A DNA stretch of 15,595 nt from Candidatus Firestoneibacteriota bacterium (GCA_038042445.1 JBBTED010000145.1:1-15595); one strand, 5' to 3'. Numbered from the stretch's first letter, positions 669-15,595 are shown. Notes: generated by a model not told the origin, from the sequence alone. Numbers and translations are program-made.

Positions 669-1544
669 TCATCTAAAATAAATCCCCACAATCAGCATTA
701 CAGACCCTATTAATCCCAAACCCATCCCCAACCAATCTATCCATCCAAATCCTCGCTTTTCTTGAAAAACAAATAAACCAATTAACACCACTCCTAATAC
801 AAAGAAGAAAGAATGCAAAGGAAAAAACAGGGTGGCCGGAATAATTAATAACAACCAGTAAAAAATCCACATAGCCCCCACAGTCGTCAAACCCAAAAGA
901 GAATAAAAAAACAATTTTTCTCTGTCTATCCAAATAGTCCAGCTTCGTCCTTTAACTAAGGAAAGTAAAGCGCCCAGGAAAGCTCCACTATACCAAGAAA
1001 ATAAATAATTATGTTCCGCCACTTCTCGCACAGCAAAATATTTTATTAAAAAATTTACTGCGCCTCCGATTAATACATACACAATCGCAGCAAAAATCCA
1101 GCGCCGGCGGATAGTATGGCTATACCGCTTGCTTGTTCCTAAAAAAAACATTGCCAATAATGTGGCCAACAGGCCAAATAAAGTAATCAAACCGCTATTA
1201 CTCCTGGGGTCAAGAAAATGCCACTCGTCAAGAAATAAAGCGCTTAAAAAAACCGCAACCGTGCTTACTAATGGAAACAAAAAAATGCTCTGCGACAGTG
1301 CTATTTTTACGGCCCGACCAAAAAACAAAGCCGCTATAACATTTATAAAACCAATGGTTGCGATTTCAACATTAAAATCAAGCGGCTTTTGCGATATCAA
1401 CACTATCAGCAATGATAATGGAAAACAAAAAAAGAACATTAGTGCTACCACCTTACCAACTGGTTCAGTTATTAGTAATTTTTTATTGCAATACTGCGAA
1501 ATGATAGCGGCGATTATCCCTATGCCAAAAGCTAAAAAAATCAT
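669..1544 (-). CDS. EamA/DMT superfamily transporter (about 10 TM, two repeats)
   Basis: 291 aa and highly hydrophobic. Two repeats end in 'VFLSALFLDE' and 'VLIGLFVFQEKRGFGWIDWLGMGLGLIGSVML', typical of DMT/EamA. Confidence 0.8.
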   Translation of the reverse strand: MIFLAFGIGIIAAIISQYCNKKLLITEPVGKVVALMFFFCFPLSLLIVLISQKPLDFNVEIATIGFINVIAALFFGRAVKIALSQSIFLFPLVSTVAVFLSALFLDEWHFLDPRSNSGLITLFGLLATLLAMFFLGTSKRYSHTIRRRWIFAAIVYVLIGGAVNFLIKYFAVREVAEHNYLFSWYSGAFLGALLSLVKGRSWTIWIDREKLFFYSLLGLTTVGAMWIFYWLLLIIPATLFFPLHSFFFVLGVVLIGLFVFQEKRGFGWIDWLGMGLGLIGSVMLIVGIYFR

Positions 1545-1556
1545 AATTTGTTCAAT

Positions 1557-2312
1557 TTAGGATTGCCGCTCTTCTTGCAATGACTTCGCATACCCTTCAT
1601 TGCGTTTGTTTTTAGAGTTAATTATCCCCCACTGGGGATGGTCACTGACAATCTTTAAAATAGTATTCATTTTAAAATCATTTAACCGTTCTGCTTCTTC
1701 TGTTATGAGTTTTATAAATTCTAAATCCTCTTTTGTGTCTAATGTCCAGCGCAGATCGGACAAATCTGGGCTGTGTATTACATTTTTTAATTTAAACTTC
1801 TCCGGATGCTTCCATAAATAAGGGGTGACATGCTCCCGTTCTGATTTTAATCTGGCTTCTGTCCAAGCTTTTTTTAAGGCCGCAAATGAAAAAACCTCCA
1901 CGTCCAGGCCATCGGGAAAAGTCGGTGGGTGAGTATTGGAAACATAATCATAATCTCCTCTTTGAAACTCCTCTACAACCTTGTCCACAATTTGAAAATC
2001 TAAAAGCGGGCAGTCGCCAGTAATACGCACTACAGCGTCGGCCGCCGCCTCTTTTGCAGCATTGTAATACCTATCTAAAACATCGTTCTCGCTGCCACGA
2101 TAAAAATTTACTTTATTATACTCTGCCCAATTCGCCAATGAATCATTATCTTGATCTTTGCCAGTAGCCAACACAATTTCATCAATCATTTTTGATAATC
2201 TTATTCTTTCCCACACATGCTGAATGGTTGGTTTCCCAGCTATATTCAAAAGCATCTTACCCGGCAGACGAGTAGAGCCCATTCTTGCTTGAATAATTGC
2301 CACTATTTTCAT
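1557..2312 (-). CDS. spsF: SpsF-like acylneuraminate cytidylyltransferase family protein (CMP-nonulosonate synthetase)
   Basis: 'IIQARMGSTRLPGK', 'RGSENDVLDRY', 'VRITGDCPL', 'FPDGLDVE', 'REHVTPY', 'RWTLDT' motifs of the CTP_transf_3/SpsF family. ATGA overlap with the upstream gene. Confidence 0.9.
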   Translation of the reverse strand: MKIVAIIQARMGSTRLPGKMLLNIAGKPTIQHVWERIRLSKMIDEIVLATGKDQDNDSLANWAEYNKVNFYRGSENDVLDRYYNAAKEAAADAVVRITGDCPLLDFQIVDKVVEEFQRGDYDYVSNTHPPTFPDGLDVEVFSFAALKKAWTEARLKSEREHVTPYLWKHPEKFKLKNVIHSPDLSDLRWTLDTKEDLEFIKLITEEAERLNDFKMNTILKIVSDHPQWGIINSKNKRNEGYAKSLQEERQS

Positions 2313-13468: not shown

Positions 13469-15160
13469 CTAAACCTTTCTTATGATGTACTTTCCATTAA
13501 CAACAACGCAGTCAACATTATCCCCAAGCAAACTCTCAATCGCATCCTCAACCGTGCAGACAATTGGCTCCTCATGTTGATTAAAACTGGTGTTAATTAA
13601 ACAAAGCCCGCCGGTTTCTTTATACCAAGAGCTAATTATGTCATAATAAAAAGGATTATCATCGCGCCCGACTATTTGCGGACGCGCAGTACCGTCAACG
13701 TGAACAACGGCCGGAGAATTCAGTTTCATCTCTTCTGTGCAATTGTAGCACTCTGTCATGAAGTTGGTAGTAATATGGTTCGGTTTCCAACCCACAAAAC
13801 AGCGCGGCGCAATTTCTTTGGTGGTAACCGGCGCAAATGGCATAAATTCTGTTCGCTTTAAACGCTTATTAAGCCAGTCATTCGCTCCTTTATCATTACA
13901 ATGATACAAAACAGTGCGATTTCCCAACGCCCGCGGGCCATACTCCATTCGACCCTGAAACAAACCAACAACTGTGTTGTTTTTCAGTAGCTCAATTACT
14001 TTATTAACCAGATCAGAATGCGAATATTCAGTGAGCTGAATACTATCATTATATTTATTGACTTCCACTTTAATTTTTTCATCGCTTTCTTCATTGCCGA
14101 GGTATACCTGTTTAACGCGCCAACGTCCCAAATCACGTTTAACCGCGCTTAGCAAGCAGGCGCCAGCTGACAATCCTCCATCCCCCATATGAGGAAATAT
14201 ATATAAATCATCAACGCCAGGCACTTCTCTCACGCACTGATTCACTCTGACATTAGCAAAAATTCCTCCGGCGCAAGCCACTTTATTTATTCCAAATTTA
14301 TCAACATAATACTTAACATATTGGCTTATCACCTCTTCTGTGTGTCTCTGGACAGCCGCGGCAATATCTTCTCGAGTAAATTCGCGTAAAACCACTTTCA
14401 ATTCATCGGTTTGTTGCCAAAAAAATGGCTTATAATATTTACCAACCTTGGCACAAACCTTTCCATCTTTAGCATAAATCATTTCTCGCATTATTGGCAG
14501 ACATTTTGCTGGGTTACCATGTGCGGCTAAACCAGTTATTTTGCCTTCATGTCTGTGTGGCTTAAAACCAAGCATGTCAGTTATTTGTCCATAAAAAAAA
14601 CCAAGACTATCCCAAGTGTAGTTACAAGAAATTTCTTCTAATTTATTTCCTTTGCCAATGCTAACTGTCCCGCTGCGAAAACTCCCTGCCGCATCCAAAG
14701 TAAATACTAATGCCTCATCAAAAGGAGACGTATAATATGCGCTGGCCGCATGAGCGTGGTGATGATCATAAAATTCAACCTTTTGCGTTACGCCCTTTTC
14801 TTTTGCCCATTTTTCAAACTGTTCTCGTCTTGGCACCGAACGCTCTACCTCAATTTTAATTCTTTCTAACATGATTCGCTTGGCCTCTTCACCACCCTCT
14901 GCAATTTCAAGCGCCCGCTTCACATAATCATGCAAATGTTCTTCATAAGGAAAACGATAATGCCACGCGTAACTCACAACATCCACTTCATTCAAACTTA
15001 TACCGGCAAAATCCAAACAAGCTTGGATGGCCTTGTTGGGAAACTCCCCGTCAAGCTTGATTCTGCTTAAACGCTCCTCATTAATGGCAAAAATACACTC
15101 TCCATCTTTAAACAATACTGCCCCGCTGTCATAACAATTATGAATTCCAAGAATATACAT
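13469..15160 (-). CDS. NodU/CmcH/TobZ family O-carbamoyltransferase
   Basis: 'EERLSRIK', 'HHHAHAASA', 'HEGKITGLA', 'AGGIFANV', 'PHMGDGG', 'EYGPRALGNR', 'FMPFAP', 'VHVDGTARPQ', 'NTSFNQHEEPIV'. Confidence 0.93.
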   Translation of the reverse strand: MYILGIHNCYDSGAVLFKDGECIFAINEERLSRIKLDGEFPNKAIQACLDFAGISLNEVDVVSYAWHYRFPYEEHLHDYVKRALEIAEGGEEAKRIMLERIKIEVERSVPRREQFEKWAKEKGVTQKVEFYDHHHAHAASAYYTSPFDEALVFTLDAAGSFRSGTVSIGKGNKLEEISCNYTWDSLGFFYGQITDMLGFKPHRHEGKITGLAAHGNPAKCLPIMREMIYAKDGKVCAKVGKYYKPFFWQQTDELKVVLREFTREDIAAAVQRHTEEVISQYVKYYVDKFGINKVACAGGIFANVRVNQCVREVPGVDDLYIFPHMGDGGLSAGACLLSAVKRDLGRWRVKQVYLGNEESDEKIKVEVNKYNDSIQLTEYSHSDLVNKVIELLKNNTVVGLFQGRMEYGPRALGNRTVLYHCNDKGANDWLNKRLKRTEFMPFAPVTTKEIAPRCFVGWKPNHITTNFMTECYNCTEEMKLNSPAVVHVDGTARPQIVGRDDNPFYYDIISSWYKETGGLCLINTSFNQHEEPIVCTVEDAIESLLGDNVDCVVVNGKYIIRKV

Positions 15161-15164
15161 AGTT

Positions 15165-15595
15165 TTATTTACCTAAAAATAATTCCCTTAATTTATTTTG
15201 ATAATTATTTTCATATAATTGCTTATACTTTAAAATGCTCTCATCAATCGATGGCAATTTTCTCTTAAACTTATTGACAGCAGCACTCACATCAAGACTC
15301 ATATTTTTGGGTCTTTTTACCGATAAACAGGAGCTATCAACAGAGATCGCCGTTATTAAAGAATCATCCAAATTAAAAATTTTTGCAAGTTTCATTCCAA
15401 AATCATATTTAGAACAACTGTCACTCGCCGCCAAATGAAAAATCCCCTTATCTTTTCTTTCAACTATTTCGAAAATATATTCTGCAAGATAATTTATTAA
15501 TATCGGAGAAAAAAACACATCATTAAATAAACGTATCGGCATGCCACTTCGTAAAGAATTAACCATCCAACCAGCAATATCATCTTTTTGTTGAA
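15165..15595 (-). CDS. RmlD-like (dTDP-4-dehydrorhamnose reductase family) SDR, 5'-partial
   Basis: The frame stays open to the window edge (..QQKDDIAGWMVNSL..). 'LFNDVFFSPI', 'GIFHLA', 'SKYDFG', 'RPKNMSL' match the RmlD substrate-binding C-terminus. Confidence 0.8.
   Translation of the reverse strand, partial: QQKDDIAGWMVNSLRSGMPIRLFNDVFFSPILINYLAEYIFEIVERKDKGIFHLAASDSCSKYDFGMKLAKIFNLDDSLITAISVDSSCLSVKRPKNMSLDVSAAVNKFKRKLPSIDESILKYKQLYENNYQNKLRELFLGK

Follow-up and report, generated by a model that had tools for sequence, protein, structure and literature searches.

The canonical pathway to pseudaminic acid, known from Campylobacter jejuni and Helicobacter pylori, runs PseB-PseC-PseH-PseG-PseI-PseF. 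The kanosamine enzymes NtdC, NtdA and NtdB (a GFO-family dehydrogenase, an aminotransferase of the DegT type, not class III, and a HAD phosphatase) swap a hydroxyl for an amine on a phosphorylated sugar. The Bacillus subtilis sps genes (SpsM, C, D, G, E, F) close a UDP-sugar-based nonulosonate pathway with an SpsF-type cytidylyltransferase, required after legionaminic acid synthesis in the portion of the report cited (PMC7439481). For the O-antigen region of Legionella pneumophila serogroup 6/12, the gene descriptions cited include a GNAT, PseG, a class III 'GSA aminomutase', a cytidylyltransferase, an acetyltransferase, HisF, HisH and an 'LPS biosynthesis protein' (PMC3694923). Late in gentamicin biosynthesis, as described in the sections cited, C-6' is oxidised and transaminated, a radical-SAM enzyme adds a methyl group, and the kinase GenP works with the PLP enzyme GenB3 (PMC7941887, PMC4039129).

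The window analysed here, 15,595 nucleotides long, is the entire 15.6-kb contig and, by composition, the strongest outlier in its bin, which is assigned to Candidatus Firestoneibacteriota. The loci most closely related to it come from Patescibacteria (CPR), and the contig may have been binned with a genome that is not its own. ORF calling gave 15 minus-strand ORFs (669-15593), 14 complete and the 15th truncated at the contig end, separated, from the gene at 669 onward, by 12, −4, −4, 8, 20, 3, 2, 35, 15, 11, 17, 20, 8 and 4 nt, exactly the 15 co-directional genes and the −4 to 35 nt spacing given in a preliminary description of this DNA. Pfam and NCBIfam profiles also bore out the domain names given there, with one exception considered below, and the features are as follows.

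1..543, plus strand: 3' part of an EamA/DMT-like membrane protein, a convergent neighbour outside the operon, cut by the contig start; weak CRT-like match
669..1544, minus strand: polytopic membrane protein of 291 aa without a named family, the last operon gene
1557..2312, minus strand: SpsF/COG1861-type cytidylyltransferase (CTP_transf_3, 123 bits)
2309..3301, minus strand: Gfo/Idh/MocA (GFO) NAD(P) oxidoreductase (three GFO_IDH_MocA Pfam domains)
3298..3927, minus strand: atypical HAD hydrolase (PF00702, 35.9 bits)
3936..5210, minus strand: class III PLP enzyme of the glutamate-1-semialdehyde-aminomutase-like branch (Aminotran_3, 157 bits)
5231..6319, minus strand: APH-fold small-molecule kinase (PF01636)
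6323..7081, minus strand: metal-dependent xylose-isomerase-like TIM barrel adjoining PseI (PF01261, 29.2 bits, just below the Pfam cut-off of 31.1)
7084..8157, minus strand: PseI, pseudaminic-acid-type nonulosonate synthase (TIGR03586, 474.6 bits, cut-off 340.25; NeuB and SAF domains)
8193..8813, minus strand: HisH-type glutaminase of the acetamidino module (TIGR01855, 263.5 bits, cut-off 105.4)
8829..10868, minus strand: B12-binding radical SAM enzyme (PF02310 and PF04055; C-terminal extension of about 280 aa)
10880..12085, minus strand: WbuX-type N-acetyl sugar amidotransferase, predicted to convert acetamido to acetamidino (TIGR03573, 348.3 bits, cut-off 203.2)
12103..12894, minus strand: HisF/WbuZ-like cyclase-type subunit of the acetamidino module (WbuZ 276.9 bits, cut-off 299.7; HisF 245.7; AglZ/HisF2 228.5)
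12915..13460, minus strand: GNAT N-acetyltransferase (Acetyltransf_3, 85.9 bits; PseH 46 bits, cut-off 93)
13469..15160, minus strand: NodU/CmcH-type O-carbamoyltransferase (Carbam_trans_N 161.8 bits, Carbam_trans_C 180.1 bits)
15165..15595, minus strand: RmlD-like sugar-nucleotide 4-reductase, C-terminal 142 aa (RmlD_sub_bind, profile positions 156-279), cut by the contig end

The exception was the DMT transporter placed at 669-1544, for which Pfam and NCBIfam profile searches gave no match; its homologue in the Magasanikbacteria locus L027 (48% identical) matched EamA only at E 0.024. Homologues of this protein follow the cytidylyltransferase in L027 and L031 (36%); transport or flipping is a possible role. 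The gene at 1..543, for its part, shares 76% identity with a gene of the EamA family (PF00892) in the equivalent convergent position of L027.

We examined 39 loci, left out 2 that had no kinase match, and sorted the remaining 37 into 28 groups; the 26 groups with a close kinase are referred to as non-redundant related loci. The gene order was conserved in these 26 loci of other organisms and is therefore beyond chance. A class III PLP enzyme came after the kinase in 21 of the 21 groups with sequence downstream, and a HAD followed the PLP enzyme in all 18 groups with room for one. The GFO and the cytidylyltransferase usually adjoined these three genes, within pseudaminic-acid clusters: GFO at 30% identity or more in 16/26 groups (not found in L024 and L041; replaced by an aldo/keto reductase in L043) and a cytidylyltransferase in 17/26 (14 of the window type and 3 of the CT2 type). 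Ten groups had PseI and L043 had a more distant NeuB, and among the related loci were true equivalogs of PseB (445 bits against a cut-off of 407) and PseC (494 bits against 423). The content surrounding this core differed widely. The expectation of conserved co-occurrence thus held for the kinase, PLP enzyme, HAD, GFO and cytidylyltransferase, but not for the carbamoyltransferase and RmlD-like gene (1/26 groups) or the window-type radical SAM enzyme (0/26). The kinase, PLP enzyme, HAD and GFO are called the cassette below.

The kinase is of a rare family (19 word-index matches; 149 representatives at E≤1e-30) with invariant residues H233, D235, N240 and D253. Its model (pLDDT 92.6) lay nearest to homoserine kinase 2ppq, N-acetylhexosamine 1-kinase and APH(9), generic fold matches at TM 0.6-0.7. 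The PLP enzyme reached 321 bits against PRK06209 (cut-off 486), and in the PDB it matched GSAM (187 bits) and then the C-6' aminotransferases of gentamicin (about 125 bits), so that its closest characterised relatives are aminomutases, not sugar aminotransferases. All 19 aligned orthologues of the HAD have D-W-G-G as motif I, which therefore lacks the Asp+2 residue; as this is the general acid/base, the HAD, which weakly matches glucose-1-phosphatase, may not be a phosphatase. The GFO is IolG-like (127 bits, below cut-off), with weak matches to levoglucosan dehydrogenase and glycoside 3-dehydrogenase.

Two natural fusions were found. In P0227 a kinase is joined to an aminotransferase, the C-terminal half, which is 50% identical to that of the window, and in P0082 an N-terminal cytidylyltransferase domain (59% identical to the window's) is joined to a B12 radical SAM enzyme (65% identical). 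These fusions tie the parts into one pathway, and with the co-occurrence of the cassette, PseI and WbuX/HisH/HisF in many independent loci they upheld the earlier grouping of the genes. Among the points against the reading we prefer, a kinase-PLP fusion would be expected of a phosphate-eliminating lyase no less than of a transaminase, and the cassette persists in L034 and L053/L054, where PseI is absent from the surrounding 10 kb.

Common to the window and the canonical pathway are a PseI equivalog, a CTP_transf_3 enzyme for activation, an amidotransferase of the PseA/WbuX type for the acetamidino group and, through the sister operon, PseB. The core, described earlier as PseI and SpsF, is no ordinary PseBCHGIF set with genes added to it: by profile cut-offs the window's operon contains no equivalog of PseG, PseC, PseH or PseF, its GNAT and cytidylyltransferase scoring far under the PseH and PseF cut-offs (PseF 28 bits against 205.7). 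PseG scored above cut-off in none of 10 cassette genomes and not in the window's own genome, that is, in none of the 11 tested, and Epimerase_2 was absent from 4 of the 10, among them G001, the genome of the sister operon. Beyond the canonical set the window adds the kinase, class III PLP enzyme, HAD, GFO, TIM barrel, carbamoyltransferase and B12 radical SAM enzyme. The cytidylyltransferase, although below all NCBIfam equivalog cut-offs, is likely to be a CMP-nonulosonate synthetase; its best PDB match was 6oew (1.4e-43), and its orthologue is the sole CTP_transf_3 gene in G001.

The TIM barrel is a candidate for the missing step ahead of PseI. Its invariant residues are E122, D155, H200 and E231, and the fold was confirmed by a model (pLDDT 94.3) whose nearest folds were ketose 3-epimerases, endonuclease IV and the 3-keto-glucoside 4-epimerase YcjR, again generic matches at TM 0.6-0.7. 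A TIM barrel was present in 4 groups and DUF218 in 12, the two together in none, and all 11 groups bearing PseI or NeuB had one or the other; their distribution tracks PseI and not the cassette. In L043 a formyltransferase is fused to DUF218.

The nearest locus, L019 of G001, supplies the start of the operon, which opens after a divergent gene with PseB (456.7 bits), directly 5' of an RmlD-like reductase gene. PseC is absent from G001, the best match (202 bits) lying on a different contig. The window's RmlD-like fragment is 64% identical to the full-length L019 gene; its N-terminal part was found nowhere else in the assembly, and neither was PseB, so the start of the pathway is drawn from L019 alone. 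The carbamoyltransferase occurs elsewhere only in the L019 lineage (69% identity), where it again adjoins the RmlD-like gene. The window's WbuX shares 82% identity with the first of the WbuX proteins in L019. In both operons a GNAT is accompanied by WbuX, in one copy or two, and the PLP enzyme is the sole aminotransferase beside them, an arrangement that favours it as the source of an amine. The GNAT, a homologue of which is fused to PseC in L043, has a predicted PseH-like role. The radical SAM enzyme belongs to a large family of proteins of about 680 aa (808 matches; 168 bits against the KedN5 family, cut-off 700) and is likely to be a C-methyltransferase.

The proposed chemistry of the cassette resembles kanosamine and gentamicin logic, though the window's HAD lacks Asp+2 and its kinase is dedicated, with a PLP-fused homologue, in both of which it departs from the kanosamine system. 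In the gentamicin sections cited, a B12 radical SAM enzyme (the C-methylase GenK), a dehydrogenase, a class III PLP enzyme and an APH-fold kinase likewise edit a sugar (PMC7941887, PMC4039129), but the substrate is an aminoglycoside and not a nonulosonate, and the dehydrogenase is of another family; similarity to the GenB proteins reaches only about 125 bits, and what is shared is logic, not family membership. The L. pneumophila region is, by its gene descriptions, a nonulosonate-type cluster with a GSAM-like class III PLP enzyme, cytidylyltransferase, GNAT and HisF/HisH, and an aryl-alcohol dehydrogenase nearby recalls the aldo/keto reductase of L043; however, PseG is present, and a kinase and a HAD are not in the list cited (PMC3694923). 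As far as the cited account of the B. subtilis sps genes goes, they share the closing SpsF-type enzyme but make a legionaminic, not a pseudaminic-type, sugar, include the PseG-like hydrolase SpsG and an aminotransferase of the DegT type, and lack the cassette (PMC7439481).

By analogy with the complete sister operon, and with the observed gene content, conserved linkage, fusions and absence of PseG, PseC, PseH and PseF equivalogs before us, we infer the chemical steps, their sequence and the modified positions, including those of the extra amino, carbamoyl and methyl groups. PseB would provide a UDP-4-keto-6-deoxy sugar. The RmlD-like enzyme would reduce C4, leaving a hydroxyl where pseudaminic acid has nitrogen, and the adjacent carbamoyltransferase would probably carbamoylate it. 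The TIM barrel (DUF218 in other loci) would act ahead of PseI, most likely by freeing the sugar from UDP, and PseI would condense the free sugar with PEP. The cassette would then edit the sugar through a phosphorylated intermediate, most likely by oxidising a secondary alcohol and transaminating it to give a new amino group, for which C8 is the best candidate. As precedents in the portions of the literature cited, an 8-amino-3,5,7,8,9-pentadeoxy nonulosonic acid is known in Flexibacter maritimus (PMC3210612) and fusaminic acid has a 3,5,9-trideoxy counterpart (PMC7371886). Acetylation of the new amine by the GNAT, conversion of acetamido to acetamidino by WbuX/HisH/HisF, methylation by the B12 radical SAM enzyme and activation by the SpsF-type cytidylyltransferase would follow. 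Taken whole, we give about an even chance to the reading that the window covers a single operon of about 16 genes, minus the first one and a half, for a PseG-, PseC-, PseH- and PseF-independent route to a CMP-activated pseudaminic-type (PseI-made, 9-deoxy) nonulosonate, with the cassette aminating through a phosphorylated intermediate.

The fusion P0227 and the strict kinase-then-PLP order (21/21 loci) would also be accounted for if these two enzymes were a phospho-lyase pair, the kinase phosphorylating a hydroxyl beside a free amine and the PLP enzyme eliminating the phosphate; in that case the cassette would remove oxygen from the nonulosonate or a precursor instead of aminating it, with the GFO reducing the resulting carbonyl and the HAD, which without Asp+2 need not be the pathway phosphatase, clearing mis-phosphorylated material. 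Hydroxylysine kinase and its phospho-lyase are a comparable pair, the ACAD10 layout is HAD-kinase-eliminase, and bacterial APH-kinase/AGXT2L fusions were reportedly described in JBC in 2012. The PDB relatives of the PLP enzyme include gentamicin enzymes of the GenB type, and the cited account of GenP/GenB3 dideoxygenation offers a precedent (PMC7941887). We nevertheless consider this unlikely. As the window and L019 have no other aminotransferase or N-deacetylase, no free amine is evident for the lyase to bind, and yet both keep the amine-requiring GNAT and WbuX genes. It gives no necessary role to the GFO/AKR or the HAD, and, once the PLP enzyme is included among the aminotransferases, their number runs parallel to that of the acyltransferases: PseC-type loci have a second acyltransferase (formyltransferase-like or FemAB-like) immediately 5' of the kinase.

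Very unlikely, in our view, is that the cassette with the TIM barrel or DUF218 only replaces PseG, freeing a 6-deoxy-hexosamine from UDP and leaving an ordinary pseudaminic acid derivative as the product. The release could proceed by oxidation and beta-elimination (GFO and TIM, as in 3-keto-glycoside lyase systems) or through a sugar phosphate (HAD), and the absence of PseG (11/11 genomes) and partly of Epimerase_2, the weak matches of the GFO and HAD, and the resemblance of the TIM model to YcjR are all in keeping with it. It leaves unexplained, however, the PLP enzyme and kinase, which are the invariant, fused core, and it is at odds with loci in which TIM and DUF218 go with PseI or the cassette stands without it.

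Kinase-cytidylyltransferase adjacency, seen in L029, L032, L047 and L055, recalls salvage pairs such as LicA/LicC, and with the varied content near the core, the confinement of the carbamoyltransferase and RmlD-like genes to one group and the annotation of WbuX-type enzymes on hexosamines as well (by family name only) it could suggest a mosaic of independent pathways on one contig (PseB, RmlD-like, WbuX/HisH/HisF and carbamoyltransferase for a 6-deoxy-L-hexosamine amidine of the kind found in FucNAm-type O-antigens, PseI and cytidylyltransferase for a plain nonulosonate, and the cassette for an unrelated amino sugar or CDP-linked substituent), but this is highly improbable given that Pfam and NCBIfam found no glycosyltransferase or second activating enzyme in the window, that only one CTP_transf_3 gene is available to PseI in G001, that P0082 joins the cytidylyltransferase to a radical SAM enzyme of the kind sitting inside the window's acetamidino module, and that all 15 genes are so tightly spaced.

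A full-text literature search found no paper describing this combination, in agreement with the earlier statement that it was not known as a characterised pathway. We conclude that the window carries a genuine operon for a sialic-acid-like bacterial surface sugar, and that its APH-type kinase, class III PLP enzyme, HAD and GFO form a recurring, undescribed cassette that probably provides the sugar with one more amino group.

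As the preliminary description had reported, the genes between 669 and 15593 form a co-directional operon of 15 minus-strand open reading frames (ORFs), the most upstream of which is cut by the contig end; the spacers calculated from the ORF coordinates are 12, −4, −4, 8, 20, 3, 2, 35, 15, 11, 17, 20, 8, and 4 nt. The domain list drawn up there was borne out by Pfam and NCBIfam scans, apart from the DMT label of the 291-aa membrane protein at 669–1544, which matched no family in either collection. The other assignments were as follows.

Components of the operon, all on the minus strand
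PseI: TIGR03586 equivalog, 474.6 bits (cut-off 340.25)
Cytidylyltransferase: CTP_transf_3 protein, 28.1 bits against PseF, below the cut-off of 205.7
GNAT: 46.4 bits against PseH, below the cut-off of 93.1
WbuX and HisH: 348.3 bits (cut-off 203.2) and 263.5 bits (cut-off 105.4), both over
HisF/WbuZ-like subunit: 276.9 bits against WbuZ, just under the cut-off of 299.7
Carbamoyltransferase: two domains, Carbam_trans_N (161.8 bits) and Carbam_trans_C (180.1 bits), as in NodU/CmcH O-carbamoyltransferases
B12 radical SAM enzyme: B12-binding and radical SAM domains both present; 168 bits against the KedN5 subfamily (cut-off 700)
Class III aminotransferase (PLP enzyme): best models glutamate-1-semialdehyde aminomutase, all under cut-off
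RmlD-like reductase: C-terminal 142 aa only
Gfo/Idh/MocA oxidoreductase
HAD protein
APH-fold kinase
Xylose-isomerase-like TIM barrel

Against single equivalogs, the carbamoyltransferase scored 93 bits with NodU (cut-off 1000), and the PLP enzyme 262.5 bits with HemL (cut-off 527.3) and 321.6 bits with PRK06209 (cut-off 486), all below threshold; a separate PLP-enzyme relative, 33% identical to that of the window, lies on contig C159 of the same assembly. The trio of WbuX, HisH, and HisF/WbuZ-type proteins is that of the acetamidino (amidotransferase) system. A search of the 3′ end of the operon for a terminator or promoter gave nothing beyond shuffled expectation.

The kinase is rare: there were 19 matches in a word-index search, and among 1.84 billion representatives searched exhaustively with a profile, 149 reached E ≤ 1e-30, roughly 33 of them with more than 300 bits. 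With the kinase profile we retrieved 18 loci from species genomes and 21 from metagenomes and compared all 39 with the proteins of the window by tblastn. Two loci (L036 and L057) without a kinase match covering 45% of the query were dropped, the remaining 37 were collapsed into 28 groups by a crude rule of 95% kinase identity, and two with only a distant kinase (L035 and L056) were set aside, leaving 26 groups. In 21 of these the class III PLP enzyme comes after the kinase, and the five groups lacking it (L028, L039, L050, L052, and L055) all end no more than about 310 bp past the kinase. A HAD gene follows the PLP enzyme in 18 groups, and the three without it (L032, L040, and L045) end inside the PLP gene. 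The Gfo/Idh/MocA dehydrogenase is present in 16 of 26 groups; in the metagenome locus L043 its place is taken by an aldo/keto reductase ahead of the kinase. Fourteen groups have a cytidylyltransferase of the same type as the window, and three have a divergent one (CT2) with a second NeuB-family gene before it; the WbuX/HisH/HisF trio was found again in seven. The carbamoyltransferase and RmlD-like pair recurs in one of the 26 groups and the radical SAM type of the window, by tblastn, in none.

In L020, L022, and L023/L049 a divergent NeuB-family gene (219.7 bits against the NeuB model, under its cut-off) and a divergent CTP_transf_3 gene together replace the usual cytidylyltransferase (for example, at L022:13996–15739), and L020 and L022 keep PseI beside this pair, which gives two synthases and one activating enzyme. 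Large CotH-domain proteins directly follow the cytidylyltransferase at L019:14745–18667 (in the Magasanikbacteria genome G001, where one is then followed by a beta-helix protein) and at L022:15797–20453, both of them CPR loci; these may be glycosylated surface proteins or be involved in handling them. Searches of plasmids gave no match to the kinase, and the PLP-enzyme matches on haloarchaeal plasmids had no nonulosonate context. A different ulosonate-type cluster lies on a Methylomagnum ishizawai plasmid (L061, positions 6229–12674 of the locus); its class III PLP enzyme is 39% identical, and the genes alongside are annotated as a 'glycosyltransferase family protein', a split transketolase, an SDR, a NeuB-family protein, and a HAD-IIIA hydrolase.

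Compared with the canonical PseBCHGIF pathway, the locus of the window fails for four of the six enzymes, PseC, PseG, PseH, and PseF. PseB is also missing from the window, and the best match in its own assembly, on another contig, scored 202 bits relative to a cut-off of 407.75; no orthologue of the PseB of G001 was found in that assembly. The sister operon L019 in G001 provides the comparison, with identities to the window of 82% for WbuX, 76% for HisF, 74% for PseI, 69% for both the carbamoyltransferase and the PLP enzyme, and 64% for the RmlD fragment; at the position of the window's radical SAM gene it has a second WbuX/HisF pair. In G001, PseB (456.7 bits) is the gene next upstream of the RmlD-like one and comes after a divergently transcribed gene, so the operon starts at PseB, and the window, cut exactly where G001 carries PseB, lacks only that gene and half of the RmlD-like gene. 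The cytidylyltransferase associated with the cassette is the only CTP_transf_3 gene of G001 and must therefore serve PseI. Among the related loci PseB and PseC occur at equivalog level (445.6 bits, cut-off 407.75, and 494.6 bits, cut-off 423.5), PseB in eight groups and PseC in ten; PseI at 45% identity or more is present in ten, and L043 has a more distant NeuB.

PseC was found in neither operon. The best match in G001 was 202 bits, on another contig, and the best in the window's own genome was 408 bits, both relative to a cut-off of 423.5. The latter gene, on contig C114, was rejected as part of the pathway because it sits with a PglC-like transferase and C114 does not join the contig of the window. 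Positions 1–6576 of C114 (L018) are a separate glycan locus, with a PseC/PglE-like aminotransferase, a small PglC-like phosphoglycosyl transferase, a phosphohexomutase, a TIM-barrel epimerase, a mutarotase, a PAP2 phosphatase, and a DUF5693 protein. In the window and in L019 the RmlD-like and carbamoyltransferase genes are adjacent, and both are absent from the 25 other groups. We propose that the RmlD-like reductase would leave a hydroxyl where PseC would place nitrogen, and that the carbamoyltransferase would cap it; the O-carbamoyl and acetamido groups are isosteric. The available text of one report describes a nonulosonate with a hydroxyl at this position, the 3,5,9-trideoxy counterpart of fusaminic acid (PMC7371886).

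In searches whose positive controls gave signal, PseG had no match in the window's own genome (90% complete) and none over cut-off in the ten cassette-bearing genomes, all incomplete MAGs (best 33.9 bits, cut-off 153.55). The contiguous cassette operons themselves also have no PseG gene, and a NeuC/LegG-type Epimerase_2 was absent from four of these ten incomplete MAGs, including G001. Beside PseI there is instead either the TIM barrel (four groups and the window) or a DUF218 protein (12 groups), never both, and all 11 groups with PseI or NeuB have one or the other. The TIM family has the invariant residues E-D-H-E, and its model (pLDDT 94.3) resembles ketose 3-epimerases, endonuclease IV, and the 3-keto-glucoside 4-epimerase YcjR only at TM 0.6–0.7. 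From the gene pattern alone we infer that the TIM barrel and DUF218 stand in for one another at the step supplying PseI and, on the same pattern, that this step is most likely the release of the sugar from UDP. N-acylation falls to different proteins by locus: a GNAT, which in L043 forms a fusion with PseC; a formyltransferase-like protein whose gene immediately precedes that of the kinase (L021, L022, L033, and L040); or a FemAB-family protein (L020, L024, L028, L041, L043, and L047). L043 contains two fusions, PseC(DegT)-GNAT and formyltransferase-DUF218 (L043:334–2010 and L043:13442–14641); the second would join consecutive steps if DUF218 does the job of PseG after N-acylation.

Two natural fusions show that the parts act in concert. 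In P0227 (838 aa) an orthologous kinase is continuous with a PLP domain that shares 50% identity with the window's, and P0082 (933 aa) unites a cytidylyltransferase with a B12 radical SAM enzyme, at 59% and 65% identity to their respective counterparts in the window. The conserved linkage and these fusions speak against an ordinary Pse5Ac7Am cluster with unrelated neighbors, a reading that we rejected. Two more distant kinases, P0249 and P0309, are fused to HAD_2 domains that are not orthologous to the window's HAD.

The kinase model (pLDDT 92.6) is closest in fold to homoserine kinase, N-acetylhexosamine 1-kinase, and APH(9), and its predicted structure is that of a small-molecule or sugar kinase; by sequence the PDB gave one weak match, and the ESM Atlas gave generic APH/homoserine-kinase clusters only. 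The HAD has the motif I D-W-G-G in 19 of 19 orthologues and therefore lacks the usual Asp+2 acid/base residue. The nearest solved relatives of the PLP enzyme are GSAM (187 bits), then aldehyde and ketone aminotransferases, including the gentamicin C-6′ enzymes. We favor amination as the function of the cassette: on a phosphorylated intermediate the Gfo/Idh/MocA dehydrogenase would generate a ketone, which the PLP enzyme would aminate, and the HAD would remove the phosphate. This reading is favored because neither the window nor L019 has another aminotransferase, though both retain the GNAT and one or two copies of WbuX, which require N-acetyl groups; because PseC-type loci have an extra acyltransferase right beside the kinase, the number of acyltransferases tracking that of aminotransferases when the PLP enzyme is included; and because it gives all four cassette enzymes a role. 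In addition, oxidation of a 9-deoxy sugar at C8 would give a methyl ketone, and methyl ketones are what class III amine transaminases classically accept. Finally, an 8-amino nonulosonic acid exists in nature, the available text of one source reporting 8-amino-3,5,7,8,9-pentadeoxy nonulosonic acid of manno configuration from Flexibacter maritimus (PMC3210612). The available part of the Tenacibaculum O-antigen cluster paper assigns no genes to the 8-amino sugar.

The main rival is that the kinase and PLP enzyme act as a kinase/phospho-lyase pair, for which a JBC 2012 phospho-lyase paper is reportedly a precedent, and the kinase-PLP fusion fits this equally well. Both the folds, an APH-fold kinase and a class III PLP enzyme, and their coupling are those of the GenP/GenB3 type, a kinase/phospho-lyase precedent in the accessible text of PMC7941887; on this reading the present pair would eliminate phosphate. 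In the kanosamine pathway, the dehydrogenase, the aminotransferase, and the HAD phosphatase all have a role, as the cassette enzymes would in amination. The cassette does not belong to that type of module, since its HAD has DWGG in 19 of 19 instead of DxD and its aminotransferase is class III, not DegT-type; by analogy, kanosamine-type logic may nevertheless apply. In enzyme logic the locus also resembles gentamicin tailoring.

The radical SAM enzyme is one of a large family of proteins about 680 aa long (808 matches); the members with a named source come from Planctomycetota, Patescibacteria, and archaeal MAGs. Through the P0082 fusion the family is linked to the cytidylyltransferase. At 763–2358 of contig C157 of the same assembly, near the start of that contig, lies a 30%-identical paralogue (551 aa aligned).

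The window is an entire contig (C145, 15,595 bp), one of 181 in a 2.8-Mb, 90%-complete assembly. Its GC content of 0.363 is the highest among contigs of at least 5 kb (mean 0.320, sd 0.013), and its tetranucleotide distance ranks first of 76 contigs of at least 8 kb, with two others nearly as far. The kinase was found in one of 99 genomes of the phylum, the window's own, and in none of the other 98; in the class of G001, three of 401 genomes had a kinase match at E ≤ 1e-20, that of G001 full-length and the others partial (95 and 74 bits). The convergent EamA-like gene at 1–543 is 76% identical, and the membrane protein at 669–1544 48% identical, to counterparts in the same arrangement in a Magasanikbacteria locus (L027), so that operon and flank both resemble Patescibacteria loci. 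The N-terminal RmlD part and PseB, with which the operon would continue upstream, were sought in the window's assembly and not found. From the rarity of the kinase, the composition, the Patescibacteria-like genes, and the missing upstream part we conclude that the contig either is CPR DNA placed in the wrong bin or was acquired by recent transfer. In an uncultured gammaproteobacterial MAG, an IS200-type transposase gene lies within the cluster between HisF and WbuX (L020:8215–8715), which fits a mobile cluster.

Full-text searching, with subscription journals mostly and supplements outside its coverage, found no description of the cassette in a nonulosonate cluster, and no text joining nonulosonic with candidate phyla radiation, or pseudaminic with aminotransferase class and phosphotransferase. 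A Legionella genome paper was the only full-text match joining pseudaminic acid, glutamate-1-semialdehyde, and cytidylyltransferase. The locus resembles the biochemically uncharacterised Legionella serogroup 6/12 region, as described in the available text of PMC3694923. Nonulosonate biosynthesis is already known; what is new is the conserved cassette and the two candidate replacements of PseG, with all chemistry predicted from sequence.

The known biosynthesis of nonulosonic acids comprises three six-step pathways. The boldest reading, which is less likely than not, is an unrecognised, horizontally mobile branch, mainly of CPR/Patescibacteria, in which the TIM barrel or DUF218 would replace PseG for release from UDP; the kinase, class III PLP enzyme, HAD, and dehydrogenase cassette, fused in nature, would carry out aminoglycoside-style chemistry on the nine-carbon acid to give 5,8-diamino sugars (in the window with 7-O-carbamoyl in place of 7-acetamido) or 5,7,8-triamino sugars; the B12 radical SAM enzyme would C-methylate; and the cassette would be the missing genetic basis of 8-amino nonulosonates such as that of Tenacibaculum (Flexibacter) maritimum. 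Nonulosonic acids shape the recognition of bacterial surfaces by phages, hosts, and immune lectins, and to our knowledge the surface glycans of CPR bacteria are essentially unknown. Loci of this type would be a conserved way to a pseudaminic-type sugar that dispenses with PseG and, in the operon type of the window, with PseC too. The four-enzyme cassette, which has no described role in nonulosonate chemistry, is found for the most part in CPR bacteria, which are ultra-small. Should the proposed chemistry hold, these loci would provide candidate genes for placing an amino group where none is so far installed on the nine-carbon backbone, two new candidate families of UDP-sugar-releasing enzymes, the TIM barrel and DUF218, and enzymes useful for the chemo-enzymatic synthesis of sialic-acid analogues.
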